Source of the DNA: Octopus vulgaris
Lineage: Eukaryota
Assembly (NCBI GenBank): GCA_951406725.2
Contig: OX597832.1
Coordinates: 36,952,001 to 37,016,000, forward strand
Direction of reading: 5' to 3'
DNA length: 64,000 nucleotides
In this document: in pieces, positions 12,089 to 59,270 of the stretch
Layout of the letters: each line of letters starts with the position of its first letter
How positions within the stretch are numbered: position 1 is the first letter of the stretch
Translations under genes and position numbers: made by a program
The notes under the pieces: model-generated
Seen by the model: only the letters and a program-made list of their open reading frames with translations
Databases searched by the model: none
What the model was told of the DNA's origin: nothing

Positions 12089-12265
12089 GGCCTTGTTTGA
12101 TTATGATCCCACAAAAGACAGCGGATTGCCAAGTAAAGGCTTAGCATTTAAATATGGGGACATCTTACATGTAACCAATGCCAGTGATGATGAGTGGTGG
12201 CAAGCCAAACGTATCACCCCAGAAGGGGAAGAAGAAGGAATGGGTATAATCCCAAGTAAAAGAAG
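12089..12265 (+). CDS. dlg1: Discs large MAGUK, SH3 domain exon (177 nt, phase 2-2)
   Basis: Pyrimidine tract + ttgcag acceptor and AG|gtaaag donor. Encodes (R)[58 protein letters not shown](R), the DLG-family SH3 signature. Confidence 0.97.
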
Positions 12266-14255: not shown

Positions 14256-14319
14256 AGTCGAGCGTAAAGAGCGGGCACGGTTGAAGATTGTCAAGTTTAC
14301 TGGCAAAGGGAATGATAAG
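14256..14319 (+). CDS. dlg1: dlg1 HOOK helix exon (64 nt, phase 2-0)
   Basis: caacag acceptor, AAG|gtaagg donor. Encodes (R)VERKERARLKIVKFTGKGNDK, like vertebrate VEKKERARLKTVKF. In frame with the SH3 exon. Confidence 0.96.
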
Positions 14320-14562: not shown

Positions 14563-14671
14563 GTGGCAGCAGCAAATGAAAAAAGGAAAAGCAATTTCTC
14601 CTTCTCTCGAAAGTTTCCGTTTATGAAGAGTAAGGACCACAGCGGTAGTGAAGATGTAAGCGCTGATGAAC
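14563..14671 (+). CDS. dlg1: dlg1 HOOK I3-type insert exon (109 nt, phase 0-1)
   Basis: ttccag acceptor, C|gtaagt donor. Encodes VAAANEKRKSNFSFSRKFPFMKSKDHSGSEDVSADE. FSRKFPF is the conserved I3 (protein 4.1-binding) motif of DLG1 and fly Dlg. Confidence 0.95.
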
Positions 14672-14812
14672 GTAAGTTCTGCTGGTGCCGCTTTGCCCTT
14701 TTTTTTCTCAATACATAATTACTTGACATCATATTTGCAGTACGCTTTTCTTTAATTGACAAACTAACACTTGAATATATGTACATATACATACATACAT
14801 TCACACACGCAC

Positions 14813-14849
<37 letters not shown>

Positions 14850-17504
14850 GACTGACAGACCGGTGTGAGGAACTCCAAGTGTTCTTCACTAGTCTAAACA
14901 ATATTGTTAGCCTGGGGTGTGCCAACAGAGAGCTTATAAAGTATTTTGCCTGGATTGATAATCCTTCACTGTTAGCTCTGTTGTTATTTATATATACATA
15001 TGTATATTTATACACACACACACAAACACACACAGGTCATCAACCCTGCTCTAGCAGCCCTCATGACTCATTATATCGAGGGATCATATAAACCTGTGTC
15101 TTTTATTAATTAACAGATGGAGTATGTATATATTTAGCTTCTATTTCTAGAAGGTCAAACAACTGTGAAGAAGTATTGCCAGTGAAGACCTAGGTTTTAG
15201 TAACTGTTGTTATGATTGTTGGTCAGGATTAGACTAGATATATATTGTGCTGATAGTGGATCACTGTTCAATAAGACAATGATACCAGTAATTATACTAC
15301 CACTTGTACTTTGCTGAATTATGAATCACTCATGTAGATATCATTACCTTTTCAATTATGAAAATTTGATGATCTAGATTGCTCTGTAGACTATACAACC
15401 ATATGGTTTCAAGATAAGACCCACTACACATCACTGACTAAGTGTCCTCTGCTATAGCCATAGGCCTTGTGCATTTGGGAGACAGATGGTTAATAGTTTG
15501 GAGATGATTAGTACCATGAGTGAGGACAAGAAGCATTTTGTGTAGGGATAGAAAGCCATTTTGGTAGAGACGAGTGGCCCTTCATGTGGTGCTCAGTGAT
15601 TTATTAAGTTTAAAACTGCAAAAGTTGCAGAAATATGTTGAAGACTATATACATATATTCATTTATACATATATGTATACTTATATATACATATATACAT
15701 TCATATCTATACATTCATGTATATAGACAAATGTACTCAGACAGACTGCTCTCTCTCACACACACAAACAAACACACATTAAATAGGGTTTTCTTGCTAC
15801 AGGTAGAAATCTTTGTTGCAATGTTTTGCTTGTTACACATTCATAAAATTGTAGGACAATTACTGTTAAAAACATTTTTTTTTTCATAAATGTAAAGTTT
15901 GTAAGATTTCCAGAGTAAATAATTTGCAATGTTTAGTTTTCCTACATTCTGAGTTCAAATCCTGCCAAAGTAACTTTCCCCTTTCAACTTTTCTCTGAAT
16001 GATGAAATATATTCTCCAATCATTTAACAGACTTTATTCAGTTGATTACATCCTCCCCCACCCCCACTCCCTGTCAGTTAGCGTCGGAAATCATTACAGA
16101 ATCAATAATAAAGCATCAGTCAAGGGCTGGGTCAGTTTAACCCTTTGTCTGTCCTGTGTGTCACTTGTGCTACACAGGATATTCTTCTCCTGGCAGCCAT
16201 GCTTAATATATGATTCACATTTCCACTTTTTTTTTTCTTTTCTTCTTTTTTCAAAACCCTGAGTAATTTGGGACTTAATGAAAGGAAAGCTTTAGAACAT
16301 ATGAAACAAGGGATAACTAAAAGCCTGAAAACGAGTTTGGATGTTTAGGGCAGACTTATGAAAATGCTTTGGACAGGCAAAGGATCACTCAAATTATTCC
16401 CTCTTCTAAATACTTGTGGGATTGGTAGCTTGTGTAGTATAATTCAGCCACATCCCTGTAGGGAAACTATAAACAATGGAACAGAGTCCAAAGCTTGATA
16501 CACACACACAACAATAGTCTTTCTGTAAAACAGTTATTGGTTCATAAACTATGGAAGGAAATAAAAGACAATGTAATGTTGACATAATATATTATTCAAA
16601 ATACAGTTCACTGATAAATATTTAAATTTAGGATCTACATAAATGTGTGCTTGTGAAATCATCTTTGCAGCCATGTGGCTTTGGGTTCAGGTTGCACTAC
16701 ATGGCACCATGGGCAAGTGTTTTCTGCTATACCCTTAGACCAACTAATGCTTTGTTGTGAATGGAATTGTGTGTGTGTATATATAATCATCACCATTTTA
16801 ATGTCCATTTTTCCATGTTTGCATGGAATAGATGGAGTTTGTTGAAACAAATTTTATAGGACCAGATGCCTTTCCTGTCACCAACCTTTACCAGTTTCCA
16901 AGCAAGAATAATATTTTCCCATGGCCAGAATTGGTTTCGTGGAATATTGGAAATAAATGCGATTCATTTACTTGCAAGACAACGAGGCACAAACATACAT
17001 ACCCATACTTATACAATAGGCTTCTTTCAATTTACGTCTCTCAAATCCACTCACAAGGCTTTGGTTAACTCGGGGTTATAGCAATAGACACTCACCCGAA
17101 GTGCTACACAGTAAGTCTGAACCAAAAGCCATTTGGTTGGAGAACAATTGTGATGTCACAGATAACTTGATCTTAATAGATTTGATTTCACTCAATGGTA
17201 ACACCATCAGTAAATGCTGTTATTTTCAAAAGACCTTCCAAATAAGGATATCTTAATACACTCACACACAGATGTGTGTGTGTGTGAATTTGTGTGACTG
17301 ACATCTTGTGTCTTGTCGTTAACACAATACAAACAAAAAAATGGATATCTGGTCTCAATCACCCATACTAGTGGGAAACAGGTTTGCAGTTGAAAGGGCA
17401 TCTGACCTCAACAAGCTTTGTCTAAGCACTTCTTGTCAGCATGGAATAATGGACATAGAAATTGAACAAATGAATATATAATATATATATTGTTACAGCA
17501 TCTG

Positions 17505-17815
17505 TGAAGGTGTGTGGATCAGTGGTTCGAGTGTCAGGCTCACAATCATGAGGTAGTGAGTTGTGTTCTTGAGCAAGACACTTTATTTCATGTTGCTCCA
17601 GTCCACTCAGCTGTAGAAATGAATTGCAACATCACTGGTGCCAAGCTGTATCGGCCTTTGTCTTTCCCTTGGATAACACTGGTGGTATGGAGAGGGGAGG
17701 CTGGTATGCATGGGCGACTGCTGGCCTCCCATAAACAACCTTGCCCAGACTTGTGCCTCAGAGGGGAATTTTCTCGGTGCAATCTCATGGTCATTCATGA
17801 CCGAAGGGGTACTTT
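17505..17815 (+). mobile_element. SINE family C
   Basis: Aligned by eye with 30385-30670 (gagcaagacactttat...gctccagt.cactcagctgtagaaatga...accgaagggg). Confidence 0.85.
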
Positions 17816-18172
17816 ACATGTTACAGAGTCCACTGCTTAATGGGTTCAAGTCCATCCTTATACACTTTACTCTATGATCCCTCTGGGACCAATTTAGTCA
17901 ACTTAGCTCCTCCCCAAATGTTTTTCAAAATCATGAGATTCGATAAAAATGTCCCAGATACAATACTTTGGCAAGATTTGAACTCAGAACATTAATGACT
18001 TTCAGCATTGGTAAAGTAAAGAACTAGTCACATTACTAATGTCTCTTGAAATTCATTGTTGCTTTTCTCCAAACCATGCAATCTTGTGTTAATATTATTT
18101 TTATTCTTTGAAAAATGAATTAATATTTATTATCTTCTCTCCTCTTCTTTTGGCTGCTTTTCTGGATTATAG

Positions 18173-18175
18173 AAG
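18173..18175 (+). CDS. dlg1: Candidate 3-nt microexon (AAG) of dlg1 HOOK, phase 1-1
   Basis: tcttctctcctcttcttttggctgcttttctggattatag|AAG|gtacgt. AG-free zone 18028-18170 with TACTAAT branch-like motif at 18034-18040 and TGC near the acceptor. Frame-preserving. Confidence 0.6.
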
Positions 18176-19768
18176 GTACGTTTGAAACTTATTAATTATT
18201 CTCTTCATTAACAATTCCGCAATAAGTCTAAATATATTCTCTCTCTTCCCCTAAATCGTGTGTAAAACATTTACTATATTCTTCTGCAATGAAATTTTAC
18301 CACACACACTGCAACTGTTTCCAGTTTGCCTCAGTCGGTTCTGTATTTCAGTCTAACTTGATTGAAGTAGGAATAATAAGGCATACAAGTTCAAGTATTA
18401 TTGTTCTGGTTTCAATACTAGTCTATACTACTTAATATACGACTGGAGTTACAATACTAGATTATACTAGTAAATGTAATATTACCGGGTTTAAAATTCT
18501 AAGTTGCCTCTGGAAGAGAGTCATTTATTGACACCCTAAACAAACCTGGAGCAGAAGAGGTCCCTCAGTTCTTTAGCTTCTCATCATAAAGATCCTACAT
18601 CCTTTTAATTACTGGGTTCATGGAACTTGTTGCATTAGACCAGTACAAGTTTGAAGACTGAGAAAGTGGGACTGTCTCTGCAGAAACCACAGCCACTATC
18701 CTAATAGCCATTGTGTGGTTGTTCAGTAAACGAAGGCACCAGCCACCAATATGCTTTCATTCATAAGTTCAATGGCAAAAGGGCAAAGAGGTAAAGGATA
18801 CTACAGGAAGGGTTCAGGTTTGACCCTGCACACAGGCAGCCATAAGACGATGGTTGTTATTAAGCTATGTCTTGTTAAAACCTCACTCGTTGAAGTAACA
18901 AGAAAGTCCACCCACAATTCTAGGTCAGTTCATTTAAGGAGATGTTACAATATGTTGCTATAAGAGATCTGAAAAATCATCAAAGCAACAATGACTTGTA
19001 GTTACTTGGAACAATAATTACAAAACAATTCGTATTATTCTTGTTGTTGTTGTTATTATTATTATAAGCCAATTTAACCAGTTTTGCCCACTCCTGTCCT
19101 TAATAATTTGTGGTCTTGTGGTTAATGTTAGAAATCATTAGTAATGTGTAAATAACTGAATAGATATTGAACCCCAGTCTGTTGCATCATAAGTTCAACT
19201 TGTGCCGTAGGCGCTGTTATTCCATTTTGTTTTTGGGCTAATACGCAATAGGTTATTTGGTTTTCAAAATTGGCTTTAGACTTCACTACAGTCTCCTTGT
19301 CTTTGAGTACACTGATATGGTAACAAATGTTATCATTTAATATATTCAGAAGTCTCTCCTGCATTAATGTTAATTAGACAATCTTTTTGTAAAGTCACTT
19401 TTAATGAATGAGTTTCTTGAATAATCTCTGGGATTCCATTAATATTATTTTTGATATACTTGGCAGTGGATTGGTAGAATTGGTAGAGTGTCAGACAAAA
19501 TACCTTGTGGTATTTTGTCATGTCCTTTACTTTCTTATTTCAAGACTCACCAAGCCTTTTATCCCTCCAGCAGTCAATAAAGTACCATTGATGTACTGGA
19601 CTCAATTTCCTCGATCTCCTTCCGTGCCCCTGCCCAAATTTTCTGGCTCTCTGCCAACATTACAAATTGTTGTTGTTGTTATTATTATTATTATTTCTTT
19701 GTTTTCCTTACCAATTTCTATTGCGCCAAAAGCTAACCAATATGATTTCTTGTTTTTTCTGCATGCAG

Positions 19769-19789
19769 AAGGCGATTGCCCTGGCCAAG
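19769..19789 (+). CDS. dlg1: Candidate 21-nt microexon, (E/Q)GDCPGQ, phase 1-1
   Basis: CTAAC branch motif 19733-19737, T-rich tract, tgcatgcag acceptor. Open in phase 1, but the donor AAG|gttttt is weak. Confidence 0.4.
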
Positions 19790-20120
19790 GTTTTTACTCT
19801 GTTTGTTTCTAGATTATTGTCAACCTGCTTCTAGCCATGTGCTGTTGTACCCGCTTCATGCTCACACATTTCCACCATCACTGTCACCAACCACTTTCAA
19901 CTACACCAAATCTGCACCCTTTTCTCACCACTATATTTGCTCTTGTGTCTGCATGTAGAAAAAGTGATGTTTATGCTATGAAACAAAAGTGCCCAGTTCA
20001 AATCCACTTGACAGGCACATTTATATGGGGACTACAGATGAGTGGTCCCATTCTTGGAACCACATACTGATAGTACTTGTGTATCTCCCAGAAGTGAAGT
20101 ATTTGTGTAGTGACCACATA

Positions 20121-20345
20121 TTAACCCTTTAGCATTTCAACTGGTCATATCCAGACCAAGTGTTCTGTTTTCTGCTCAAACTGACCAAATCTGGCATATC
20201 ACACCTATCTTACAATGTCTTTCTAAAAATAAACAATCACATCATTGAAATCTCATATTTACAAGATAATGCTTGATTAATTCAAAACACACTTAGATAA
20301 ATAAGAATTACATTTAATAGAGTAATCTGTATGCTAAACGGTTTG
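20121..20345. mobile_element. piggyBac-type MITE (opposite orientation to 5697 copy)
   Basis: TTAA-CCCTTTAGCATT ... atgctaaacggttt termini. Confidence 0.75.
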
Positions 20346-23300
20346 AAGGTACTTGTGTAGGGACACAGGGGAAAGATACTTGTGTAGATTCCGTGTTTAT
20401 GAAAAATTTAATGTAAATGATATAAAACATTATAAACATAAATTTCAAAGAAAAACAAACAACACCCCCCCCCCCCCATCCAATGGCTCACTAACGGTAG
20501 GTGTGGAATCAACTATCTGCTGTTTACTGGGCATGTAAGAATTTGTCGTTAGATGCTTCACTAACCATCGTTGGTTTTTTTAATCATGTAGCCTCCATTT
20601 GCCATGTAACCACTACAGTTACACAGTTCATATCCCATTAACAAGGACCATTTCTCTGTTTTAGTTTACATCAAATTGATATCCATAATATCAGGCACAT
20701 TGTTATGCAATAATTTTCAGTTCAGTCATGTCCCCCCCACACACACACACACACTTTTTTTGTTTTTTTTTCGTATATTATGAAATGTAATTATGGCACT
20801 AATGCAACAGATTCTAGTCAAATTGCTTTAGCTGTTTTGGGCTGATTCTCAGTGGCCAATATTCCATGACTACTATGAACAAAAACAAGAATGAAAGCCA
20901 TATGATGGTGAGAGGATGCAGAATTGGTTAATCTTGTGTGTGTACATATATGTTTGTGTGTCAGTTAGTCCAGCAGAAACAGACAGTGGAGTGAACATTT
21001 CTAAAGAACAGCCAGCATTGAATGATAAATATTGCTGCTGCCCTAAACCCTTCTGGGTTGACATCTGTATATCACACCCACATTCCTTAACGTGTCACCA
21101 TTTACAGTATTGTCTTCTTCTGTTTGGATTAGATCTCACTGTCTGTAACTGTCCAGCTAATAACCACACAAACACACATGCACGCACACACTTAAATACA
21201 CATCCACACAAATACGCATTCATAAATACACACATTTGTTCTTTATTTAAATTTATTTGCTTGCCTTTGTTTAGTGTAACTTTTTTTTTTTAAATTATTT
21301 CATTTATCTTTGTTTAAATGAAGACCTTTTGTGGTAATTCCCATTCTTTAATAAAGGTTAATGACAATAATTATGATGAACTAATTGCTAATCAAAATAG
21401 TGTTAGGCTGAAGCTCCAAGCAAATTATTTGTACAGCTTAGTTTTTATTCCTGGTTGTAGCTACCTCTGTTTCGTTTATTCAGTTTTGGAAAAGGCATGA
21501 AGGCCACATGTGGAATTTTCCTCACCTCCTTTGTAACCATTGTAAGATATTTCTCTTTGAGAAATTCTACCTGATGAATAAATAATTTACAAAGTGAGTT
21601 GAAGACACAATATTTTCTTTAAAATCTGTAATGTACACCTGCTCAACTGTTGTTGATTAAAAGTACTTACATGAGGCCATAGATGTAACTGCACAGGCAC
21701 ATAGTAATTTGTATAAGATCACAGATTAAAGGTATCTGTATAAGGCCCTGAGATCAAAGACACTTATGAAGCAACCAGTGGTGAAAGGTTTTTGTGTACT
21801 GGCCACAGTTTGAATATATGTGTATAGGTTACATATTAAAAGTTACTTTTGCAGGACCACTTATTAAAAGCATATATAAAGCACCCAGCATACAAAAATC
21901 CCTGCTTAAAATGCTAGTGAGTAGACCATAGTATTGTAGTTTGTTTTTAAATGCCTCTCTGCTTGTAGGAGCAACTAAACACCCTGTTATCTATTACTAA
22001 TACTGCCTATTGACAACTGTTGGAGCCAACAAGTTGTTTCATAGAATTCACATTTATTCTTTGTTGCATTAACTGGAGTACTACTCACATTTTCTTTTTC
22101 CTCCTCATCTTTGGAATGAAAGTTCCACAAAGACATGCACCTCCTTTAAAGATTCCAGGTTGTTGAGATGTAAATTGAATTTTATGAATATTGTTGTTTA
22201 TCATTCATGTTAAAGACACTTAGGTAGCAGAAGCAGGGTTATGATCTCTTTTACATTTATAACTAGCCAACTCCTACAAGTTTGTGTAGGGTTTACACAA
22301 ACTTGTAAATCTTACAGTTAGAAATCATGACTAGCATAATTTCATTTGTACCAATATTCTTAAATGATGAAGATTATTATTTTGAAATGGAAGATTGACT
22401 GACATGTTGTCTTCTAGGAGTTATCTATTGCCATTTACGTTATGAGTTCAAATTCCACCAAGGTCAACTTTACCGCTCATATTTCTGGGTTGGTAAAATA
22501 AAACACAGTGGTGATGATAAAATAATGTACTGGCCATGTTTTGGGCTCAAATTCTTACAAAAACCTCTGGCCTTAAAACCTTCTGTTAGAAAATATTAGG
22601 CGTCCATGTCATCAAATTATATTTAATTGTTTATCATACATATTGTTTTTTTCCATGCTCTCCTTCACCAGCTTCATCTCTCAATTACCATCTGCCATCC
22701 TCTTCATTTTTGCTTTGTCTATATTTGGTTTATGTATCATCATCTTTAGAACACAGTCTTCCTAAGTTTGTCTCTCTATCTCCATAGATAGCTGTGTGCA
22801 TGTGTGAGTGTGTGTATGTGTGGTTTTGTAATGTGTGCACCCAAACTCAGTCGCATGCACCAACATACACACATGCCAATATGTGTTCATTTATTTCATC
22901 ACCTTTTCCTCTTCTTTAGTCACAGCGTTTGGAAATGTTTAATTACAGCTTAATTCTGTTAATTACGACACCAATCTTTCATTTCAAATCTTTATTTTGT
23001 TTGTTTTTAAATTTTTTTATTTTTTAGTATATTTCACTCACCCACCATTTTGCTGAATCTCTTAATATTTCTCTGAAAATAGTTCTTCAAATGTTGGAAT
23101 GCCAAACTTCATACTTCCATGCCCACCACCTCATAACACTCTTTTGCAATACTATTGACTTGACACTATTTTTCCACTCAGTGTATTTGAATGTTTGTAG
23201 TGTAGATAGCCATGCTACCTGATCTTATCATTGTTATTATTATCAATTTATTATTATTGTTATTATTATTAATTTATTATTATTACTATTGCTTATAATA

Positions 23301-23972
23301 TACAAGCAACAGGTTATCAGTTACTCTTCACAGTTGTATCATGTCATTATTTTGGAAATCCTACCAAAATTCCGACATACACAACATCAGAGACAGCTGC
23401 TTTTTTTTTTTTCCTCCTCCTCTGTTGTCGTGTATGCTAGAAGATGAAGAATCGCAATGGGTGGAGGGACATGCAGTCAGTCCAACCCTTGTTAGCATGG
23501 ATATAAAATGGATGTCAAATAACGATGATACTATCACTTTGTTTTATTATGAAATGCATGTATCTCTGATATTGGATGGAATTATATATATTTTTTGTAA
23601 TTTCTTTACTTTCTTATCAAAAACTTAACATTAAATTAGAAATTTGTAAATAACTAATGTAACAAACCCCTCGAAAAATGTTTGAAACTAAATGTTAAAA
23701 AAAAGCATTTTATTATTGAGAATAACAATAAAATCATAAGGAAAATACTTATAAAGTTTATAATTTAATTAATTTGTCTTCCCATGCATGAATAAAGTTA
23801 ATTTAGTTTGTTTTTAATTAATTAAAATCTAATGTTTCTTGCTATCATCTTTACTGTAGTTTGATGTGTGTTGTATCAAAGTTAGGAACAAAATTGTCTA
23901 TTTTCTCTGTGTGTGTTGTATGTGTGGTTTCATCAACATTCTAGCTGGATTTTCTTATTGCATGCCTCATAG

Positions 23973-23993
23973 GTCCTCCTGAGAAGAAACCAG
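23973..23993 (+). CDS. dlg1: Candidate 21-nt microexon, (G/R)PPEKKP, phase 1-1
   Basis: ttttcttattgcatgcctcatag|GTCCTCCTGAGAAGAAACCAG|gtaacc. Good donor, purine-rich exon, TGC/TGCATG upstream, frame-preserving. Confidence 0.72.
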
Positions 23994-25299
23994 GTAACCA
24001 AAATGTTAACTGTGGTTGTGTTGTGGTTATCATGTTCATTTTATGCCATTTCTGTGTTCTTCATCACCTCTATAGTATCTTCTCACCAAAATGCATTCAA
24101 CTGTAATACTATTTATAGTAGGAGGTCATCTCTCCAAATGTAACGTTAGTTTTCTGACCACTGCACAGCCTGTGTGCAACCAGGGCATTCCTTAATTCTC
24201 TGAGGTTTAGCAACCGTTTATATCTATCACCAACCAAATTACAAAACCTCTTTATAGTCATTTGATCTATTAGAAATAAAAGTCAAATCTCTCTCAAATT
24301 CTACTTTAAAATAAAAAAAAGAAGGGACACAGTGTATAAATGTAAATATCAACTCTGCTCGGAAAGAAAAAAAAAAAACAGAATAATCACAGCTGAAAGG
24401 TTTTTGCTTTAGAATGATAAACAATAATAGATGTATATCATAGTATATTAAGTATACTCTTATAGGGTGGATTGATTTAGAAATAGCAGCCAAATGTTTC
24501 AGTCTTTAATCCCATTGAATAATGTAGTTCATGTAAAATGCCTGAATAAAAGATATAGTCATAGCTAGGGTATCATTGATCATTTGCCTGTTTGGATTGG
24601 GTCTGATCTGAGGCTAAAACAACAGCTACAACCACCTACCATGCAGTACCTGTGGTTATAACTGGATCAGGGCTGGCTTTACATCAAACACGATCACCTA
24701 CCCCTCATATGTCCATTTTTCATGTTGGCAGGACCTGGTGAGCTGCAGGGCAGCATTGGATTCCACTGTCAGCTTTGGCATGGTTTTTACTGCTGGATAC
24801 CCTTTACTAACACCAACCACTTTACAGGGTGTACTGGGTGGGTTTTTTTGTTCTAACAGCAGGAAGGAAAAAAGGAAAGAGCTTCCTTTACTAAAATGGA
24901 GTTTTTAGTGTTTGAGAGGTTAAGAAGGGCAACTGGTCCAAGCCAGGTGTTGAGAAGTAAAAGTGTGATGGAAGGACCAGCCCAGGTGTCTTGTTGTAGA
25001 GGAAATACAAAGCTACCCTGTTTTATGTAAGGATGGGTGAGAGTAGCGGGAAAGAAGATGTAGACGGTGGTGATGAGATGCCAGAGCATCTCTGTGTACA
25101 AGAAGGTGAGTAAAAGAAAAGATGTAGCCGGGAGAGAGGGGTGGTTGCATACGCATGTGAGGGGAGACGAATATTATAGTGAATACACATCATTCATTTT
25201 CATTTGTTAATTTGATGACATCAAAACCTAAAATTGCTTTTCATCGTCATCTAACCTCACATTCGAATACAGTTGAATGAATTTTAATTTTGTGTCTCT

Positions 25300-25910
25300 G
25301 CTGTATGTAACAACTATTGCCAGGTCTGTATTACTGTTGTTGGCGAATCTCACAACAGTTTAGTGTTTCTGCTGTTTGTGACACCTATTGCAAGGTCTGT
25401 GTTACTGTTGTTGGTGTATCTCACAACAGTTTTGTATCTCTGCTATATCGTAGCAGCTGTTGTAATATCTGTATTACTGTTGTGATGTCTGTATGGCAGC
25501 CGTTGAGAGCTTGTGTTACTGTTGTCGGTATATTTCGCAACAGTAAAGTTGTATATGTTAATGTGTTTCACATGAATTGTTAGCTATGTGTTGTTACTAT
25601 GTATCTCACAACTGTTGTGAGTGTATGATAATCTCTCATAACAGTTCTATGTATGATATAGAATGTCTCAGTTGTTCGGTTGATAGTCTCTCACAATTGT
25701 TGTTAGGTATATCATTTTATAGTCTTTCACCAATTGTTGTTGGATATGTCATTTTATAATTTGTCACAGAATTGTTAGGTCTATGAGTTCAATATCTGTC
25801 TCACAATTGTTGTTAGGTGTGTCATTTTATATATAATCTGTTTCACAGTTGTTGTTAGTTCTATGATTCGATAGTCTCCCAGAAATGTTATTAGGTGTAT
25901 AAATCTCACA
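25300..25910. repeat. Degenerate tandem repeat (tctcacaa.tgttgttaggt / tgttactgttgt motifs)
   Basis: Recurring tctcacaa and tgttgtt motifs at irregular ~35-70 nt spacing. Confidence 0.75.
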
Positions 25911-27532
25911 AATGTTTGCATGATATTATGTTGTGCATGTGAGCTACTGTCAAGCTATGATGTTGTGATGTTCATCACGATTTGCCTTATGTCTCTTGGC
26001 AGACGTTCACAATTGTTTTTGCTGTTTCCAACTACAAATGGAAAGGTTCCTCAAAGATACAAATGTCATTTCCTAAAATCTCTCAACCTTTGACAAGTTG
26101 TAAAACAACTTGTCAAAGATTATTGACGAAGAAGAGGAGGAGAGCTGAGAGGAGGCAGGCATTGTATCTTACTGTGAACAATTGAGAGCAAATTCTAGTC
26201 TTAATTCTTAGATGGTGCCACTCCACATGTATTTCTAGAACAGAGGAACCACTAATGCCTGCTGTCTCCATAGTGTACCACTGGTACCTGCTGTCTCTAT
26301 AGTACACCATTGTTTACTGTTTCCCTAGTGCATCACTGGTATCTAAATTGATGGATATCTTTTACATGTCTCTGCCATCACCTTCTGTTTTCTCTGTCCA
26401 GTTCATTGTTGTAGATACATGTTAATCTTTCTATTGGAACATTATTCTATTCTGCCGTTATTAACCAATGTTGTCTCTGCTGCAATTCATTTGAATTCAA
26501 TTGCTCTCCCCCCCTCCCCGTTAGAATTCTTGCTGACCATTTCCATTATGTTGGCCATTTATAGCAAACAACAACATTAGAAGATGCTTTTTCTGTTTTA
26601 TTTTATTTTCTCTCATTTTTATCTTGATGGAATCAAATTTATTAATTTGCCTCAGACAAACATTTTACATCTGGTTAATATTACTTTTTAAATTAGAATT
26701 ATCTTTCGGATTAGTGTTTCCATGAAAATTTACCTTAAATCTTCAATATTTTCATTTTTATTGTTATTACACAATTTTCTACTACCACCACCACCACCAC
26801 TGCTATTCTTACTATTTTTCCATTTCCTTTTCAGAATTCTTAATGTATAAATCCTCTTCTTCTTCTTTTTAATGTTTTCTTAATTTCTTGAACAATGGCA
26901 AGAACAACAATGCATTGATGCACATTTCACTCTGATTCTCTCACAAATATTTACTTAATTCCTTCTTAATCTTAGCATGTTGTCTTTAAGTCTGTACGCT
27001 CTTTTCCAACAGATTTTGATTGGTAGATCCTGAAATTGGATGGATTCTCTCTCCATCATTTCTTAAAATCTGTGGATCACTTCTAAGATTGGTCTCGTGG
27101 ATTCTGTGTTGAAATTGATTTTTGTGGATAAGAGTTAAAACTGGTTTCAGTGGATCTGGCTAAAATCAGATTCTGTGAATCTGTGTCAATATTGAATAGT
27201 CCTGGCATTATAATGTCGAATGGATTGTTTACTTAACTATTCAGGTTCCTAAGTTCTCGGATATTAACATTTCTGAATGGGAAGATATTCAACTCTGTCA
27301 GACAAACATGAAACTACATTTTCCTTGCTCTGCTATTATGGAAGAGAAAATGTATTTAACTGCACATTGCCAAGACTGTTGAGTGTCATACCGAATGCTT
27401 CAGTTTAGTTCCTTGGGATCCATTTCAGGATTTAAATAAAAATTAAAAAAACCCATTTTAATCCGTTCTGAGTCAATCAATCAACCGTATCAACTCCTGT
27501 AAATCTAGTTTTGTGTCCAGACAAGAAGCTGA

Positions 27533-27855
27533 AGTGGTGAGCTGGCAGAATTGTTAGCATGCTGGGCGAAATACTTAGCGGTATTTCATCTGCCACTACA
27601 CTCCGAGTTCAAATTCCGCCATGGTTAACTTTGCCTTTCATCCTTTCGGGGTTGATTAAATAAGTACCAGTTGCATACTGGGTCAATGTAATCAACTAGT
27701 CCCCTCCCCCAAAACTTCAGTCCTTGTGCCTATAGTAGAAAGGTTTACCATTGTTATTATTATTATTAGGTACCAGTTGCATACTGGGGTGTATGTAATC
27801 AACTAGTCCTCTCTTCCTCCTCCTCAAAGATTTTGTGCCTATAGTAGAAAGGATT
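27533..27855 (+). mobile_element. SINE family A plus duplicated 3' half
   Basis: Well-preserved copy: gagctggcagaattg...gagttcaaattccgcc...ctttcatcctttcgggg...taagtaccag. Confidence 0.9.
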
Positions 27856-29338
27856 TATTACCATTAATTAACTATCATTTGTCTCTGCTCCTATTTCATC
27901 ATAACTGACAATGCATCTCATTCTTCCAGGGTCAATGAAATAACTGGCAATCATCTCTACTTATTCTGTTTGCAAATTTGAGACTTAAGTGTCAGTGTGA
28001 GACACAGAAATCCTTAAGATAGTTAATTTCCACAGAAATATGTGATATTGCAGGAATTAGAGTTTGAAGAGACTGCGTAATAGGAAACGGTTGATGTCAG
28101 TTTTGTCTTTCCAGTGTTCTGCTGGTAGTAAAATGTGTGAGGATGGCAGATCACTTAAGGCTTGGTGACATATCAAGCATTTAAGACCCTTCTGAATTCT
28201 CATGAGGTGAGAGCTACCTGCTTGCCTCCAGAATGATAAGCTGCCTGGAAAACTACTTAAGTGCAATTTCTCATGGATCTGTGAACCAAATTAACGTTAT
28301 TTCTTCAAACTGCTGGCTTCAAAGTATTCCTTCTGCACTAATTAAGTTTGGAACACACTTCTTCATTTCACTGAATACAGGGTTTTTAAGATTAGATCAT
28401 CAGATGAAAGGTGTATTTCATTTGAACCATTTAGAGAGCTGTGGGGGGGTTGGGATGAGATCAGTGATGATTCGTGTAGAATTATTAACACTAATTACAC
28501 TTAAACATGACAGAAAATATTGGGTGTCAAAAGATACAGATGTCATATCAATAGACATTTAGCTTAGTTCTGTGGCTGAATGTACGTAGCTTTCTCTATA
28601 CACACACACTCTCTCTCTCTCTACCATATTTGGTTAACATGTAAAACACCTTTTAAAGTTAACAAAAGTATGTGACATGTTCCCAACTAGATGTTTTTGT
28701 TTTCTTTCCTTTTTTTACCAGCTCATTGAACTGGTTAAGAGGTTTGTGTTGAAGGAAAATAGCATCACCATTTCCATAGCGTCTGTCTCCCCCCCCCTCA
28801 TGATTTGTTATTAATTATTATGTTACTTGCTGTCAAAATACACGTCTTCATGTGAAATAGTTTTGTCTCTATATATAATCTGGAATTCATTCAGCATGCC
28901 ATCATCACATGCAAGAAACATTGATAAAACAAACAATATGTTTACACACATTACACATTCTTTAAAAAAAAAAAAACTCCATTTAACATTGCTAAATGTT
29001 ATTATGTTCTGTAAATTGCTATATTCACTGTTGACAATGATCAATAATTTTTACCTTCATAAGAAATTTTATTTAAATAATTGTCATTAGGAACTTTATT
29101 AAAAACCCAGAATCTAACCATCTAAAAACCATCATTCTATTTATATATTTCTGAATGACTATTGTTTATTTTTGTTGTTTTCTCTGTTTATTTTTTTGTT
29201 CTTTTTTTTAATTTTTATTATTAACCATCTGTAAAAAAACTTCTCATCCAGCTCTCTCTTTCTTTGACTCTGTCTTTTAACACACAACCAACTATTTGTC
29301 TCTCCTACAATCAATTTGATCCTATCTCATTACTACAG

Positions 29339-29374
29339 GTGGATTAGCCAGTGATAGTAGGGAAGGTAGTCTTC
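29339..29374 (+). CDS. dlg1: dlg1 HOOK small exon, I5-like (36 nt, phase 1-1)
   Basis: tactacag acceptor after ~85 AG-free nt, C|gtaagt donor. Encodes (G)GLASDSREGSL(R), resembling vertebrate I5 NASDSESSY(R). Confidence 0.85.
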
Positions 29375-29839
29375 GTAAGTAATATCTTCCTTCAAGTTTA
29401 TCCAAAACATTCATGGGACAAGTCTTTGTTACTTTTCTGTTTTCCTTTTTATTTAATTTAATTTTCCTTTTCTGTAAAGCTTGCCTCAGGCTCTGGTGTC
29501 TGTTGTCCTTCTTCTCCTTCTGTTACATCTCTGCCACTCTTATCTTGCTTCTCATCATCTCTTTTCTCTCTCTCTCTGCCGATGTCGCAAGAAGGATTAA
29601 GGATTACCATGTTAACACCTCCAAAATCATGGAATCATTTTCAATGTCTTGTGGTTCCACAAACGTACAGCTTCATAACAGTTTCACAACCCATTTCAGA
29701 ATTAGCCATGGTAACCCTTTTGTTAAGGGTCTACTCTAACCCTGACCCCATTCTTAATTTCTTTTCACATTAAAAAATAGCAACAACATCAACAAATTTG
29801 TTTTTGTTTTGCTTTTTTTTTTTTTCTGTATATTTGTAG

Positions 29840-29869
29840 TCCTTAAAAGACGGATCCCTTCCAGTCGAG
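29840..29869 (+). CDS. dlg1: Candidate 30-nt microexon, (L/V)LKRRIPSSR, phase 1-1
   Basis: Long T tract with TGC, tttgtag acceptor, strong GAG|gtaaga donor. 30 nt, open frame. Confidence 0.75.
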
Positions 29870-30384
29870 GTAAGACCCTGGTGAGCCGAGTGTCTCAGGC
29901 CTCGCTTTAAGTTGCTGTTGTAGCAGTTTCACTTCACACATCTCTTGGTCATCACACATTCTTGCTTCTCCTTCTCTCTCTCTCTTGCTGAGAATGTGTG
30001 GAGGAGAGGCTGTGCAATGAAGTAGAAGTAAGCTTTGTGGTTTCAATTCCCTGTTGTATCCACTTCACTTCACAAATGTTTTGGGGAAAGACATGAAAAC
30101 CATCACATCACAACATGCAATATTTCTTCTTCCTTACAATCTCAAAATTATTGCTTGCTTAAGGACATTTTTTTTTTTTCTTTTTATGTTCAGGATTAAG
30201 GATATTTTGTAGACCCCCACCCAACAAATATTTAATTTGGTTGGCGTCAAGAGTCACTCATTAACATAATGGAATGTTAAAGTTCGAATGCTTTAAAATT
30301 GGATCTATATGTGATTGTGATGTTATTTTGACTTGGGTCGGAGGAATTACTTCAGACTATGGCAGTCAATAGGTGCATAAAACC

Positions 30385-30670
30385 ATATGGCTCAGTGTTT
30401 AGAGTATTGGGCTCACTATCATGAGATAGTGAGTTCAATTCCTGAATTGGGCTGTCTGTTGTGTCTTTGAGCAAGACACTTTATTTTATGTTGCTCCAGT
30501 TCACTCAGCTGTAGAAATGAGTTGTGATGTCACAGGTGCCAAGCTGTATCGGAGAGGGGAGGCTGGTACGCACGGTTGACTGACTGCTGGTCTTCCATAA
30601 ACAACCTTGCCCAGACTTGTGCTTCAGTGGGTATCATTCGGGGTGCAATCCCATGACCGAAGGGGGTCTT
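30385..30670 (+). mobile_element. SINE family C
   Basis: A/B boxes tggctcagtg / gagttcaattcc. Homologous to the 17505 copy. Confidence 0.85.
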
Positions 30671-31169
30671 TATGGCTGTCGATACACTTTATCTTATCCT
30701 AGATTTTCATTCCTTCTTATTGCCATTTAACTTCATTTATATTCTAATTCTTTTGCAAAACGCTTGAATATTGCAAAATCACATTCCTCTCCTCCTCAGG
30801 TGGTGTGTATATAATATACACCTCTAACAGTATATGTACCCTGCGTAGGTATATAATACATTCATACACAGGCTTTCTCATTCACTCATGCATTATACAC
30901 GCTTTCTCACTCACAGGTCGAACTTCTGTCAAGCCATATATGGCCATCTGCACTAATGCCAAATATATGAGTTTGCTCACAGGCTGAGAGCATTTGTCTC
31001 ACCTGGGAAAGAGGTGCTGAGTTGGTTGCTTCTGGCAACTTTCTACAGACTTGCTTCTGCTTTGTGAAAGCTCCATCATAAAGGATCTGTCTTCACGTGT
31101 GATGGTCATTCAACTACAATCACCAATTACATTAATGAAGCATTTTTGCAAACCTCATTTATCTTCATC

Positions 31170-31545
31170 TTTTTTTCTTTTACTCGTTTCAGTCGTAAGA
31201 CAACAGCCATGCTGGAGCATGGCTTTGAAAGGTTTAGTCAAACAAAATGCTCCCCATTTTTTTTTAAGATTTTATTCTTTAAGTCTGGTATTCTATCTAT
31301 TTCTTTTTGCTGAACCACTAAGCTTTGGGGATGTAAACAAACTAACACCTGTTGTCAAGCATTGGAGGTGGGGGTCAAACAAATGCATGCACACAAAAGG
31401 TTTCCATCTACCAAATTCACTCACTAGGCATTAATCGGCCCAGGGCTATAGAAGAAGATGCTTACCCAAGGGGCCATAGAGTGGAATTGAACCTGATGCC
31501 ACATGGCTGCAAAGCAAGCTCCTTAACCACACAGCCATGCTTGTA
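31170..31545 (-). mobile_element. SINE family B
   Basis: Homologous to 420-770 and 39075-39430. Confidence 0.85.
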
Positions 31546-31564
31546 CCTGTATGTGTATCTTTGA

Positions 31565-31770
31565 AACCCAAAAGAAACTGGATATGACAACTGCATTCAG
31601 TTTGGCTGTGGGTCTCAGAGTATGCAATTTCATGGATCCACATTTCAGACAACCAAAGATTCTATTGATGTATTCTAGCCTATGATGAATCTCTTTACCA
31701 ATATCTGCGTCCTGTGACAGGTGACTGGCTGCACCAGGTTCCTTCTTGCCGTGTGTTTGTTGAAGCAACA
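31565..31770 (-). mobile_element. RTE-clade LINE reverse transcriptase fragment
   Basis: SHLSQDADIGKEIHHRLEYINRIFGCLK...NAVVISS resembles RTE YLGS.LS.D..ID.EI..RI..A...FG.L. Confidence 0.7.
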
Positions 31771-34700
31771 CCTTCGTGTGTATTAGTAATTATAGGTTTT
31801 CTGCCCAAAGTTGCACTAACCTGTGGTATCACCTGCTCGTTAATGTAGTCATGGTTTTTGTTCTGGTGTTAAGCAAGAGTGGAATAGCTTGCCATTTCTG
31901 CAGTCCAAGATCTGAACACCAGGTGAGAGTTTAACTATAGTCAGTACAAGCATAGTGAAGAGAAAGATGAAAGATGTGTGTGTGTGTGTATATATACATA
32001 TACATACACACATATATATACATGCACACATTAGGTAGATAGATACTTTATACACATATACATGCATCCACACTATAAAGTTAAATATATGATAGAGACA
32101 ATTACAAAATATCTTCTGACGACCAATCTTCTGCAAAAGTTGAAAGGGACCCCAGCCACTCCATCCATCACAGTAATGTCACCCTATTGCCATTCTCACT
32201 GCTACCATTGTCATCCTTCACCTTTCATGCGACACTTCCTGCACATACCATCTTTTATTGTCTGTATCACCACCAGCTAATGTCTGATCACCTCAGCTAA
32301 ACTTCACCACAAGCAATATTTCGTTCTATCTGTCTGTCGGTCTCTATAGCTAACTAGCCATCTGTACATGTTGCTCTATCCATCAACATTTCTCTCTCCA
32401 TCTCTTTATATGTCATTCTGTCTATATAACTTTATATCAGTCTGTATCTGTTATGCTTCTTTCTCTCTATCTTCTCCCCCCCCCATCTCTCTCTCTCTTT
32501 TTACCTATGTGTTAAAGATATTTACTCTTTATTTAATTCAGTTACAATATATTTATATGAATTTGACTGGCACCTAGGTTTTGCCCCTTAACAGCTTGTT
32601 AAGCCACTGGGGCAAAACTTGAGGTCCCCAGACAAATCAATATAATCAATAAATTTCACTCTTTGTTTTGAATCACATCAATAAATGCTTTTGTTTTTTA
32701 ACAAGCCGATTCACTCTACCAAATGACATATCTGTGCAAATAAATATATATTCACACACACACACACACACACAAGCTTGGCATCGAGTATATTTAGCAA
32801 AGAGTGAAGCTGAAAGTAAGAATTTCGCCAATGTTTCGTGACATAACAATCAGATATATGAAGTGGTCTAGATTACGAGGCTGCAATGGGAAGGAATGGA
32901 TGTCATTGGAGAGGTGTGTATGGAATGATGATGGGTAAAAACTGGTGAGTGCTATGGCAAGAGGTTGTTGAATGCATGGTAGAAAGGCCGTTCAACAAAA
33001 TTGCCCTCAGCCTCATTAGTGGCCCTGGTGCGGGAGAGAGCAGAATCTCATTGAAATATGCTTGCACCCATCCACTTCCTTGATTCAGTACTTGACTGCT
33101 GGGTCCAGCACCTTGATGGCAGGTAGAAGCATCTATCATGAGATCCTTCTGGAAAAGAAGTGAATGGCATTACATGGCCCTTCCTTGTTCATAATCCTCT
33201 GAACTATTAGAAACTAGGGCAGATTAGTGTGCATCATCATGGACCCCTCTATGCGTCCATATAGAGCTTCCTATCACAACTCTAGTTCACCTTCTGGTTC
33301 TGGTCAAAGTGTTCATTAGAGAACCTAGAGGATGAGTGTGTTTAGCATTCATTTTGACTGGGTCTCGAAATTTTCCTGGGTTTTACTTCAGAGTGATGGC
33401 CCTCATCGACCTACTGGGATCGTTACTGATGATGTCCTGGACCCGTTGGACAAATCTGGCCATCTTGACATTGAATGACTGTTGAGAATGTGTCTTTTTA
33501 TTGGTCACAAACGACACAATCCCTTATCAGGCTCTTGCTCAATGCAGAACCCCAGAACATGAAGGACCCATCCATGTTCTGCTCGTGATCTCTGAGTCAA
33601 CAGAGTTGGCAGCTAAAGCCACGAACGCAAAGCAGCTTTTCGTTTTCTTTGTCAGATTAGAATTTGCCTTGAAAGACACCTGAAAGAGAAATTTGAAACA
33701 TTATATTTATTTCATCTTCCATTTATGGCCTTCTAAATTTTGTTCAGAAAAAAAAAAACTCAGTACATCCTACACCTATCTAGACCTACTCCTCTCTCTC
33801 TCTCTCTCTCTATGTATGTCCCTCTCTCTTTGTTTCTTTTCTCATTTTGTTTTTTGCCTTTCTGTTGTTTTTTTTTATCCTTTCTCTTTTTATATCCAGC
33901 TTCACTTTCCATGTCCATGTATAATTTGGTATATTTTAATGTATAAAGTAAATAAAGCAATATAGACAATGTATATGTAAATGTTGTGTGTGTGAATGTG
34001 ATCTACAGATGTAATTTATAATATATATATACATATATATATATAAAGCATGTATGTATAAATTGGTGCTTACAAGTATCTGTATTTGCATGTTAGTATC
34101 ACAGGTATGTATATATATATCTGCAACAAAGTAGACGGATCATTTGGGATAAAAGTTTCTGAGTCAATCTACTACAGGCATTTTTCCACAGCTCTAAGCA
34201 AACCACTTTATTCTATACACTCCATATCTGACCTCCCAGTCAGGTAGTATGTGTCATGTTGTAAATGCCTGAAGCACAGGTATGATCGAGTGGTTGCAAA
34301 GTTTGTTTCCCAGCAATTTGGTTCCAGGTTTCATCACGTTGCTCAGCACTTGGACAAGTATCTGCTGTGTGCGTGGGAGTGTGTGTGTGTGTAGCTGGGC
34401 AAGACTGCATCATTCCATGTATAAACACAATCCAGTCTACATGTACACGAACTATTCTCCTCTTTTTTCAGTTCGACTCCCTCCCCCCTTTTCTGCCTGT
34501 CATTGTGTACACATGTAGATGTTTATGCTCCTCTCCTGGTATCCCAGGTCTAACTTGTTGCTTGACTACTCACACTAATCATTGAAATGCCATTAACCAT
34601 TCGCGATATTAACATTTAACTGGCAACATTCTATTCAAATCACTAAGATTTCATCGTCTGCCCATATTTTCATGTTGTTGCATGCCATTAGAATTCTTTC

Positions 34701-35740
34701 TAAAATTCCTGTGAAATTTTTTTTTGTCATTTTTGTTGCAATAATTTCATTAAATTTTATAATTTCATATTATTACCTACACAATATTGTATGTGTGTGT
34801 ATAGATATAGATATATAGAGAGATAGATAGTTATTCATTTTGAAGTGATTTCATTTCATTTTGTTGCAACTATTATATTTATTGAAACTGCTAGTGAAGG
34901 AATTCTTTTAATTTCAGGTTTGCATTACTGCAGCTTCCCAATTATGGCATTCTGTGTGTGTGTATATGTATATGTGTGCTTGTGATTGTGTGTGTACATG
35001 TATATGTGTGCTTGTGATTGTGTGTGTGTGTCTGCACACGTTAATGTTAAGAATGGCTGATGTTGGCTGCTCATTGTTGTGTTGTAGACGACTTTTGCAT
35101 GTTTGTTGTTGTTAATTTTTTTCCTTCCCATGTTTCATTTTTTTACATTCTGAAGTAAGATGGAATATTCTAGAATTGTGGATCTCATCCATTTCTCTGT
35201 CTTAACTATTTTCAGCTTCTCAAAAGCCATGGTGGGCCCGTTTGAGGCTAAAGAGGCTTTATTCTCATCTAAATGAGTAAATTAGGAAAATAAGGATTAC
35301 TGAGACGTTATGCTGATCCTTAGAATATCCTCTGTGGGAGTTTGCTACACTGTCATCACATGTTTGATAATCTACGTCTAGTTTCTGAAAAAAAAAATCA
35401 CAGATCATTACATTTAAACTGTATCTTAAAATTGATTAGACTGTTTATTGATGAGTTAATAAAGGGTATTGCGTATGGCAGACCCTACAAATGTCAGTGA
35501 AATATTTCGTGGTTTATGTGACGAGTACTTAGTGGGTTAGTAGGGACTATTATGTGAGGACCTACAATTGACTGTCAAATACATCAGGTTAGTTATTATG
35601 TGGGACTCGACGACTATCAGACATTTGATGTTTTAGTGGGTTATTGTAGCAGCAGACTCTACAATTAGCTGTTGAATATTTAATTTCTCTAACTCCTATT
35701 GTCTCCTTGCTAATTCTTCTTTTATCTATCTTTATTTTAG

Positions 35741-35788
35741 GTGGTGATGAACCTATCTTATCATACGAAGCAGTCATACAGCAGGAGT
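35741..35788 (+). CDS. dlg1: dlg1 exon joining HOOK to GK (48 nt, phase 1-1)
   Basis: ttttag acceptor, T|gtaagt donor. Encodes (R/G)GDEPILSYEAVIQQE (conserved LSYE.V). Confidence 0.95.
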
Positions 35789-39820: not shown

Positions 39821-39912
39821 GGAGATGAATAAAAGGATCACAGAGGACCAGGCTAGAAAAACTCATGAAAGAGCAATGAAACTTGAACAAGAATTTGGAG
39901 AGTATTTCACAT
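39821..39912 (+). CDS. dlg1: dlg1 penultimate coding exon (92 nt)
   Basis: ttgcag / T|gtaagt. Encodes (M)[30 protein letters not shown](S). Confidence 0.97.
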
Positions 39913-40225
39913 GTAAGTAGTCGTCGTCTCCTTATTTCACATGTAAGTAGTCGTCGTCTCCTTATTTCACATGTAAGTAGTCGTCGTCTCCTTATTTCAC
40001 ATGTAAGTAGTCGTCTCTCCTTATTTCACATGTAAGTAGTCGTCGTCTCCTTATTTCACATGTAAGTGTCGTCGTCTCCTTATTTCACATGTAAGTATTG
40101 TCTCCTTATTTCCATGTAAGTAGTCGTCGTCTCCTTATTTCACATGTAAGTAGTCGTCGTCTCCTTATTTCACATGTAAGTAGTCGTCGTCTCCTTATTT
40201 CACATGTAAGTAGTCGTCGTCTCCT
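39903..40225 (+). repeat. 30-nt minisatellite, 11 copies, containing the exon 5' splice site
   Basis: Unit tatttcacatgtaagtagtcgtcgtctcct. Copies start at 39903, 39933, 39963, 39993, 40022, 40052, 40081, 40107, 40136, 40166, 40196. Confidence 0.99.
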
Positions 40226-58018: not shown

Positions 58019-59270
58019 TCAGATTAAGTAAAAAGTAAGCAACATTTTGAACCATGCAGAATTTGTACCAGATTTTTGCAGAGTTTTGAATTTTTTTAAA
58101 CATTTTTTTTGCAATTGTCTGATAATAGACATAGACTTGCCCAACAGCATCAATAAATTAAAATTCATATTTTTTACACCATTGTTATAATAATCTGAGC
58201 AATTTTGCTAATCAACTTCAAAAAAAGGACGTAAAGCAGCTGAAACTGCTTGCGATGTCAACGAAATGTTTGGTGAGGAAATGGCCAGTGAGTGTTCCAC
58301 TCAAAAATGGTTTAAAGGATTTTGCAGTGGAGACCCGAGCCTTGAAGACTGTGAGCAGAGTGGATGTTCATCTGTCATCAATGATGGTCAATTAAAGACC
58401 GTCATTGAGAAAGATCCACATAAAACCACTCAAGAACTGGCAAAAATCTTCAGGTTAGCTAGAAAACTGCCTGCAACCATTTGCGTGCAATTGAAAAATC
58501 AAAAAATCTCAACAAAGGGGTACCACACGATTTGAATGAAAATCAGAAAATGCACAGACATGAAATCTGCTTGTCACTTCTTCTCTGTAACCAGGCTCAT
58601 CCATTTCTCGACTGTATTGTAACTTGCAATGAAAAGTGGATTCTGTGCAATAATAAAAATGTTCTTCGCAGTGATTGGACCAAAATGAAGCACTGGAAAC
58701 TTTCCCTAAACCCGAACTCTTCAAAAAGAAGGTTATGGTGACTGTTTGGTGGTGTACTGCTGGACTCATCCACTATAACTCCTTAAAACCTGGAAAAACT
58801 ATTACTGCAGAAACCTATTGCCATAAAATTACCAAAATGAACAAAAAACTGCTCTTCCTCCATCCCAGACTGGTCAACAGAAGAGGACCAATCATTCTTC
58901 ATGACAATGCTCAACCACATGTTTCACTAATGACATTCCAGAAGTTGAGGGAACTTGGCTACAAAGTCCTTCCCCACCCAGATTATTCCCCAGACCTTTC
59001 ACCTACTGACTATCACATATTCAAGCACCTTGATGGTTTCCTGCAAGAGAAGGAGTTCAAAAATCAAACCAATGCTGAAAGTGCGTTCAAAGAGTTCATC
59101 AGTTTCAGAACTCCAGATTTTTATGTTACCAGAACAAACAAACTTGTAACTCATTGGCAAAAATGTGATGATTGTAATGATACTTAGATAAATAGAATTT
59201 CCGCATTGTCGAAATATATTATGATGAATTTCATGTTTCAAAACACTGCTTACTTTTCACTCAGACTGGA
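58019..59270 (+). mobile_element. Full-length decayed mariner (Hsmar1/SETMAR-like) DNA transposon
   Basis: Flanking TA (58017-18, 59271-72) and imperfect TIRs (aaaagtaagca..ttttgaa). Frameshifted transposase pieces GRKAAETA, QKWFKGF, GVPHDL, VTCNEKW, LHDNAQPH, YSPDLSPTDY. Confidence 0.95.
58190..59187 (+). pseudogene. Mariner DD34D transposase pseudogene
   Basis: Split over ORFs 58266-58535, 58481-58741 and 58675-59187. First catalytic Asp reads N (TCNEKW) and the start codon is degraded. Confidence 0.9.

Follow-up and report, generated by a model that had tools for sequence, protein, structure and literature searches.

Small in-frame exons joined in a nested pattern within the HOOK region of octopus discs-large

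The 3' part of the octopus discs-large gene (Dlg1) lies on the + strand of the window, the 64-kb stretch of Octopus vulgaris DNA analyzed here, where tblastn places isoform X1 of O. sinensis across ten exon blocks that span 12087-41277. The host gene encodes a MAGUK of the DLG type (PDZ-SH3-HOOK-GK): the PDZ, SH3 and guanylate kinase domains are Pfam matches of the O. bimaculoides Dlg protein, and the best PDB matches are DLG4, fly Dlg, and DLG1. The product of the SH3 exon (12089-12265) matches Dlg of both O. sinensis and O. bimaculoides at 100% identity, and this exon is followed on the same strand by the HOOK helix exon (14256-14319), placed by a 100% tblastn match to O. sinensis X1 and by its splice sites, and by an I3-type HOOK exon (14563-14671) that ends in phase 1. 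A 21-kb intron separates the I3-type exon from the first exon past the HOOK loop (35741-35788), which starts in phase 1 and encodes the strand that comes after the loop. The Dlg proteins found in each octopus species are isoforms of one scaffold gene, and small exons in a regulatory loop are thus a plausible route to several synaptic or junctional forms of the protein.

Five small exons, named here a to e, are clustered in this intron, all on the + strand. Unit a is a 3-nt microexon (AAG, 18173-18175) followed by the donor GTACGT, unit b is a 21-nt microexon (19769-19789) with a NAGNAG acceptor and a weak donor (GTTTTT), and unit c is a further 21-nt microexon (23973-23993), while units d and e are exons of 36 nt (29339-29374) and 30 nt (29840-29869), the latter basic. 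As claimed in a preliminary description of the locus, all five are GT-AG units in phase 1 with lengths that are multiples of 3, and every combination of a to e between the I3 exon and the first GK exon is free of stop codons (32/32). As a check on chance, all AG..GT units of 3-51 nt that keep the frame and contain no stop codon were collected from the intron, 855 on the + strand and 889 on the - strand, and scored with a splice-site matrix that is rough, its frequencies being approximate and not trained on octopus. Among the 855 + strand units, e ranked 1, a 2, c 5, d 14, and b 15. A score of at least 10 was reached by two + strand units (e and a) and by none of the 889 on the - strand, so motif strength alone would not prove b, c, or d. 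Firmer support than the motif score comes from public proteins, in which all five peptides occur, and the five units behave as real exons. A candidate for a sixth exon, the unannotated 6-nt AG..GT unit at 24732-24737 that ranked third of the 855, was rejected because it occurs in no mollusc or annelid protein screened and because three - strand units score almost equally; it may be a product of chance.

The three octopod clusters of public proteins hold 24 models, 21 of which were used: 11 from O. sinensis RefSeq, seven from O. bimaculoides RefSeq, one from O. vulgaris GenBank, and two from Argonauta. The other three lack at least one flank and were left out (P0122 stops early, P0123 begins inside d, and P0141 is an N-terminal piece), and one of the 11 O. 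sinensis RefSeq rows is common to a later O. bimaculoides model. Unit a is present in 18 of the 21 models, b in 16, d in 13, c in 10 (from O. sinensis and O. bimaculoides), and e in a single one (O. sinensis X3). Isoforms include or skip the units without loss of frame, in nine of the 32 possible patterns (none, a, ab, ad, bd, abc, abd, abcd, and abce), these being patterns of models and not of cloned full-length cDNAs. The same six patterns occur in the RefSeq sets of both species, namely a, ab, and abc, each with or without d, and abce is found additionally in O. sinensis. The order in RefSeq is therefore a, then nothing, b, or b and c, and then nothing, d, or e. None of the 10 models carrying c lacks b, and none of the 21 joins d to e.

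RefSeq X-isoforms are predictions from aligned transcripts, not cloned full-length cDNAs, and for this reason a combination may have been chained together from separate short-read junctions, and some combinations are perhaps missing from the set. Gene models also under-report rare isoforms, so further patterns may exist. One pattern is ambiguous by its nature, because unit b opens with AAG behind a CAG acceptor. Use of the second AG of this NAGNAG would shorten b by 3 nt, and an mRNA with b and without a is thus the same as one with a and a shortened b, an ambiguity that applies to pattern bd. In-frame cassette exons within the Dlg HOOK loop, as first proposed from the DNA, are nevertheless borne out: instead of joining the I3 exon only to d or directly to the GK side, with no conservation of the other units between species, public models hold all five, and a and b are kept in cuttlefish-like transcripts. 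The further proposal that the units had been mostly missed by annotation fails for RefSeq, where 18 of 18 rows, from O. sinensis and O. bimaculoides, have at least unit a, and is partly right for the three GenBank models (O. vulgaris and Argonauta), which lack a, c, and e. The microexon cluster is real, is already annotated, and occupies a position in the HOOK region where splicing of Dlg is known to vary. Searches of open-access literature listed no paper devoted to HOOK microexons of octopus Dlg. The feature itself is neither hidden nor unannotated, and since optional HOOK inserts are well known, the surprise is a modest one.

The position of the one-codon exon merits separate consideration. 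Sites of the form AG-A(A/G)G-G(T/C) occur only twice between I3 and b, at 15151 and 18173. The 18173 site has a strong donor, a pyrimidine-rich, CU-rich tract, more than 100 nt upstream without an AG, and a TGC at -18, whereas the 15151 site (AG-AAG-GT) has a poor donor and tract and ranks 100 of 855, against rank 2 for 18173. The site at 18173 is the likeliest origin of the extra residue and the likely 3-nt exon, a position that we infer from these signals. It is improbable that the extra 3 nt come from the 15151 site, or that both sites are used, such that 18173 is not, or not the sole, exon. The two origins are indistinguishable in mRNA, and the acceptor at 15151 is used for a terminal exon in an O. 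bimaculoides protein (UniProt A0A0L8GJ11), yet the rank, donor, and tract at 15151 are poor, and two extra AAG codons ahead of b are seen in none of the 21 models. The terminal exon of A0A0L8GJ11 is short (15151-15192) and gives a protein without GK, which could be a genuine truncated form or a result of splitting the gene in annotation. The cluster is a test case for the splicing of a one-codon exon within a 5-kb intron stretch.

Six Logan proteins that group with Sepia pharaonis DLG1 extend the comparison beyond octopods. Two long members share 99% and 98% identity with the S. pharaonis fragment, against 81% for O. sinensis along the same fragment, and one Logan contig encodes 895 aa on 2.9 kb, so it represents spliced mRNA. 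Units a and b are present in all six of these cuttlefish-like transcripts, b with one substitution, C to Y (6/7 residues kept), and c, d, and e are present in none of the six. Two of the six (P0005 and P0137) have an additional 18-residue HOOK insert after b, likely a decapod-specific exon, for which no convincing match was found in the intron or in the window. Short octopus transcript fragments covering the HOOK region were also sought; of the eight proteins returned, the six that were named all come from non-cephalopod molluscs.

Optional inserts at this site are widespread. Models from abalone, Gigantopelta, limpet, apple snail, scallop, oyster, and chiton have optional inserts of their own, of about 3-39 nt, at the same place, with one-residue differences between isoforms in the abalone and Gigantopelta pairs, and the insert sequences change rapidly among molluscs. 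Bee, ant, and sawfly models have blocks of ~6-33 residues that are present or absent here. Among vertebrates, a 14-residue S/D-rich segment stands before the post-HOOK strand in the rat SAP97-I3 fusion (P0323), in rodent DLG1, in a thrush DLG2-like protein, and in a goose DLG3-like protein. It is missing from a frog DLG2 isoform and is thus present or absent among vertebrate DLG2-like proteins (P0353 versus P0324). Vertebrate HOOK variants were also sought with a fish DLG2 region, and the 120 matches listed are near-identical fish DLG2. PMC9307800 places the I5 insert of DLG1/SAP97 right after I3, and the 14-residue segment is called I5-type here on account of that position, which makes its identity with I5 a presumed one.

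Unit d is identical to the rat SAP97 post-I3 segment at 7 of 10 aligned positions (shuffle p 0.005) and also matches the distal segment of Gigantopelta (shuffle p 0.004). Across rat SAP97, the thrush DLG2-like protein, and Gigantopelta, p for d is 0.004-0.005, and p<0.05 was obtained in 5/11 comparisons, with the proviso that the match between d and I5 is short, of low complexity, rich in S, D, and E, and inclusive of the common junction arginine, and that no single test survives correction for 44 comparisons. Five of seven mollusc distal segments match the rat SAP97 segment (p<0.002), and e outscored d against the Patella and Pomacea segments. For b, c, and e against the three vertebrate segments, a set outside which vertebrate I4 lay, p was at least 0.15, and for the octopus units against a fly-like segment it was at least 0.39. 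Together, the mollusc, insect, vertebrate, and cuttlefish-like comparisons indicate that the insert architecture is widespread, that d is likely old, and that a and b are at least coleoid in age. The preliminary description had called the units lineage-specific, which overstates the case, because d resembles both the I5-type cassette and the distal exon of other molluscs, and because separate small inserts occur at the site in gastropods, bivalves, and a chiton; c and e have been seen in Octopus only. As judged by sequence resemblance, d is likely homologous to the I5-type cassette of vertebrates and would be an old exon that is probably broadly used, and b, c, and e would be younger cephalopod or octopus gains. 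If homology between d and I5 holds, the vertebrate I5 cassette traces to the bilaterian ancestor.

In an AlphaFold2 model of the isoform with a, b, c, and d, pLDDT is <50 at residues 216-268 and 271-288, the inserts occupy 260-286, and a confident strand, the one encoded by the exon at 35741-35788, follows at 295-302. The inserts are predicted from this model to fall in the disordered SH3-GK loop that ends just before the next strand, a loop that is absent from solved Dlg and SAP97 SH3-GK constructs. Unit b carries a charge of -2, c of +1, d of 0, and e a net charge of +4, and by analogy the octopus inserts likely alter the length and charge of the linker between I3 and the closing strand. In parts of the vertebrate and fly literature, HOOK inserts change localisation and the binding of calmodulin and Dishevelled (PMC9307800; PMC4252473), and the HOOK region binds calmodulin, 4.1, and Dishevelled via I3 and has a role in SH3-GK autoinhibition (PMC9307800, PMC4252473, PMC5008907, PMC5706957).

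The octopus cluster shares with inserts I2-I5 of vertebrate DLG1/SAP97, as presented in sections of PMC9307800, the gene family, the disordered SH3-GK loop, and the position after I3. It differs in having five units rather than I5 and I4, three of which are no longer than 21 nt and one of which is a single codon, and in the constancy of I3, which is in all 21 octopod models having both flanks, where an I2-type alternative was not seen. The Drosophila and insect dlg1 HOOK extension exons (PMC4252473) likewise provide several optional in-frame segments after I3, but the insect blocks are larger and do not match the octopus units in sequence. Recurrent gain of neural exons in the same genes across bilaterians, O. 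bimaculoides included, is described in the main text of 10.64898/2026.09.05.749416, and the presence of differing small exons at one protein position in different lineages is a similar phenomenon. Dlg does not occur in that main text, and its supplements may list these exons with tissue inclusion.

Control of the cluster by a neural splicing factor can be assessed from the motifs near its acceptors. Targets of the eMIC domain are described, in portions of 10.1101/2021.02.24.432780, as having UGC near the acceptor, a long AG-free zone, and a CU-rich tract, and sections of 10.1101/2024.09.17.613571 report UGC in 74-79% of SRRM3/4-dependent microexons without its being strictly required. Units a, b, and c are similar in being frame-preserving and 3-27 nt long, the eMIC microexon range, in lying within a disordered loop of a scaffold, in having TGC 9-18 nt before the acceptor, and in belonging to a genome with an SRRM_C-matching exon. 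Unlike eMIC microexons, the cluster has TGC at no more than background frequency, unit a in every RefSeq row, units (d and e, 36 and 30 nt) that exceed 27 nt and fall only within a wider 3-51 nt definition, and a weak donor at b.

The TGC motifs stand at -18 from the acceptor of a, at -9 for b, at -14 and -10 for c, and at -30 for e, with none within 40 nt of d. Four units thus have TGC close to the acceptor, at the positions that had been claimed, but the frequency is no higher than background: TGC lies within 20 nt in 3/5 units versus 60/205 acceptor-like sites, and within 35 nt in 4/5 units versus 96/205 (p~0.15 for each). Against constitutive acceptors, of which one in nine has TGC within 20 nt, p is 0.095 for the five units and 0.018 for a, b, and c (3/3), this last being a post hoc choice of the three shortest. 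The AG-free zone is >100 nt for a, 38 for b, and 30 for c, and 34-87 in six constitutive acceptors. One exon in the genome matches PF15230 (SRRM_C), a family that we take to be the eMIC region, at 32 bits against a curated cut-off of 27, and lies within an RS-rich stretch; a second eMIC exon, sought with an approximate motif, was not found within 20 kb downstream of the match. Given the TGC pattern, the SRRM_C exon, and the inclusion of a throughout RefSeq, the predicted neural control is plausible for b and c and doubtful for a and d. There are also two loci with a cwf21 domain, an SRRM2-like 5' region on C27 (L008, C27:11415) and a split cwf21 exon on C25, the latter 1.53 Mb upstream of the SRRM_C-matching exon and on the same strand (C25 loci: L002/L005, G000:C25:37317492-37317628; L007, C25:35789896). 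The cwf21 and SRRM_C exons on C25 possibly form a separate SRRM3-like gene that arose when Srrm234 was duplicated in octopus.

The explanation that we favor, if only slightly beyond an even chance, is that the five frame-preserving phase-1 exons of the I3-GK intron are joined in the nested series seen in public models and add 1-27 residues to the predicted-disordered HOOK loop. By analogy with vertebrate and fly HOOK inserts, the lengthened loop would shift linker length and charge beside the I3 binding motif, and this change would likely tune SH3-GK regulation and partner binding. Under the same explanation, an eMIC-type splicing factor would likely activate b and c in neurons, a would be a mostly included one-codon exon, which fits its presence in 18/18 RefSeq rows better than a neuron-only switch, and d would be the old I5-type cassette, with b, c, and e gained at a position that takes optional inserts in molluscs, annelids, insects, and vertebrates alike. 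The cluster is a compact test case for whether a cephalopod eMIC programme acts on a synaptic scaffold.

It is possible, if on the doubtful side, that the exons are real and belong to no neural eMIC programme, being ordinary alternative exons, whether constitutive (a), broadly variable (d), or under the control of other factors, that are tolerated because the loop is disordered. The RefSeq rows for a, the want of TGC enrichment and of any TGC near d, and the rapid turnover of insert sequences among molluscs are all consistent with such an arrangement, whereas the retention of a and b together, and of most of the b peptide, from octopus to cuttlefish-like transcripts argues against it, as does unit a itself, whose long AG-free zone, CU-rich tract, TGC, and strong donor make up the layout described for eMIC targets. 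A quite different expectation, implied by the up to 32 combinations of the preliminary description, is a free code in which five independent neural switches generate as many isoforms. All 32 frames are indeed open, the 465-nt intron between d and e means that nothing steric bars their joint use, and rare isoforms would be under-reported. However, the 21 models show nine nested patterns, with c always behind b and d never with e, and six of the patterns are identical in two independently annotated species, so that independent switching is improbable and the idea of a free code overstated.

A broader evolutionary reading of the nested, partly eMIC-driven cluster can be offered only tentatively. 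The post-I3 intron may be a splicing platform as old as the bilaterians, with an ancestral I5 exon common to molluscs and vertebrates, before which cephalopods would have stacked ordered, eMIC-driven neural microexons. The one-codon exon would have been kept from octopus to cuttlefish, and possibly in gastropods, and the whole would act in neurons as a stepwise dial of length and charge on the SH3-GK switch.

Elsewhere in the window, a 30-bp unit repeated in 11 copies (39903-40225) reproduces the end and the GTAAGT donor of a GK exon, whose true end is at 39912. The repeat creates about ten spare donors, and read-through to any later donor meets a stop codon. Downstream of the Dlg gene, a fragment of a mariner-type transposase (PF01359, E 1.7e-17) lies at 58702-59181.
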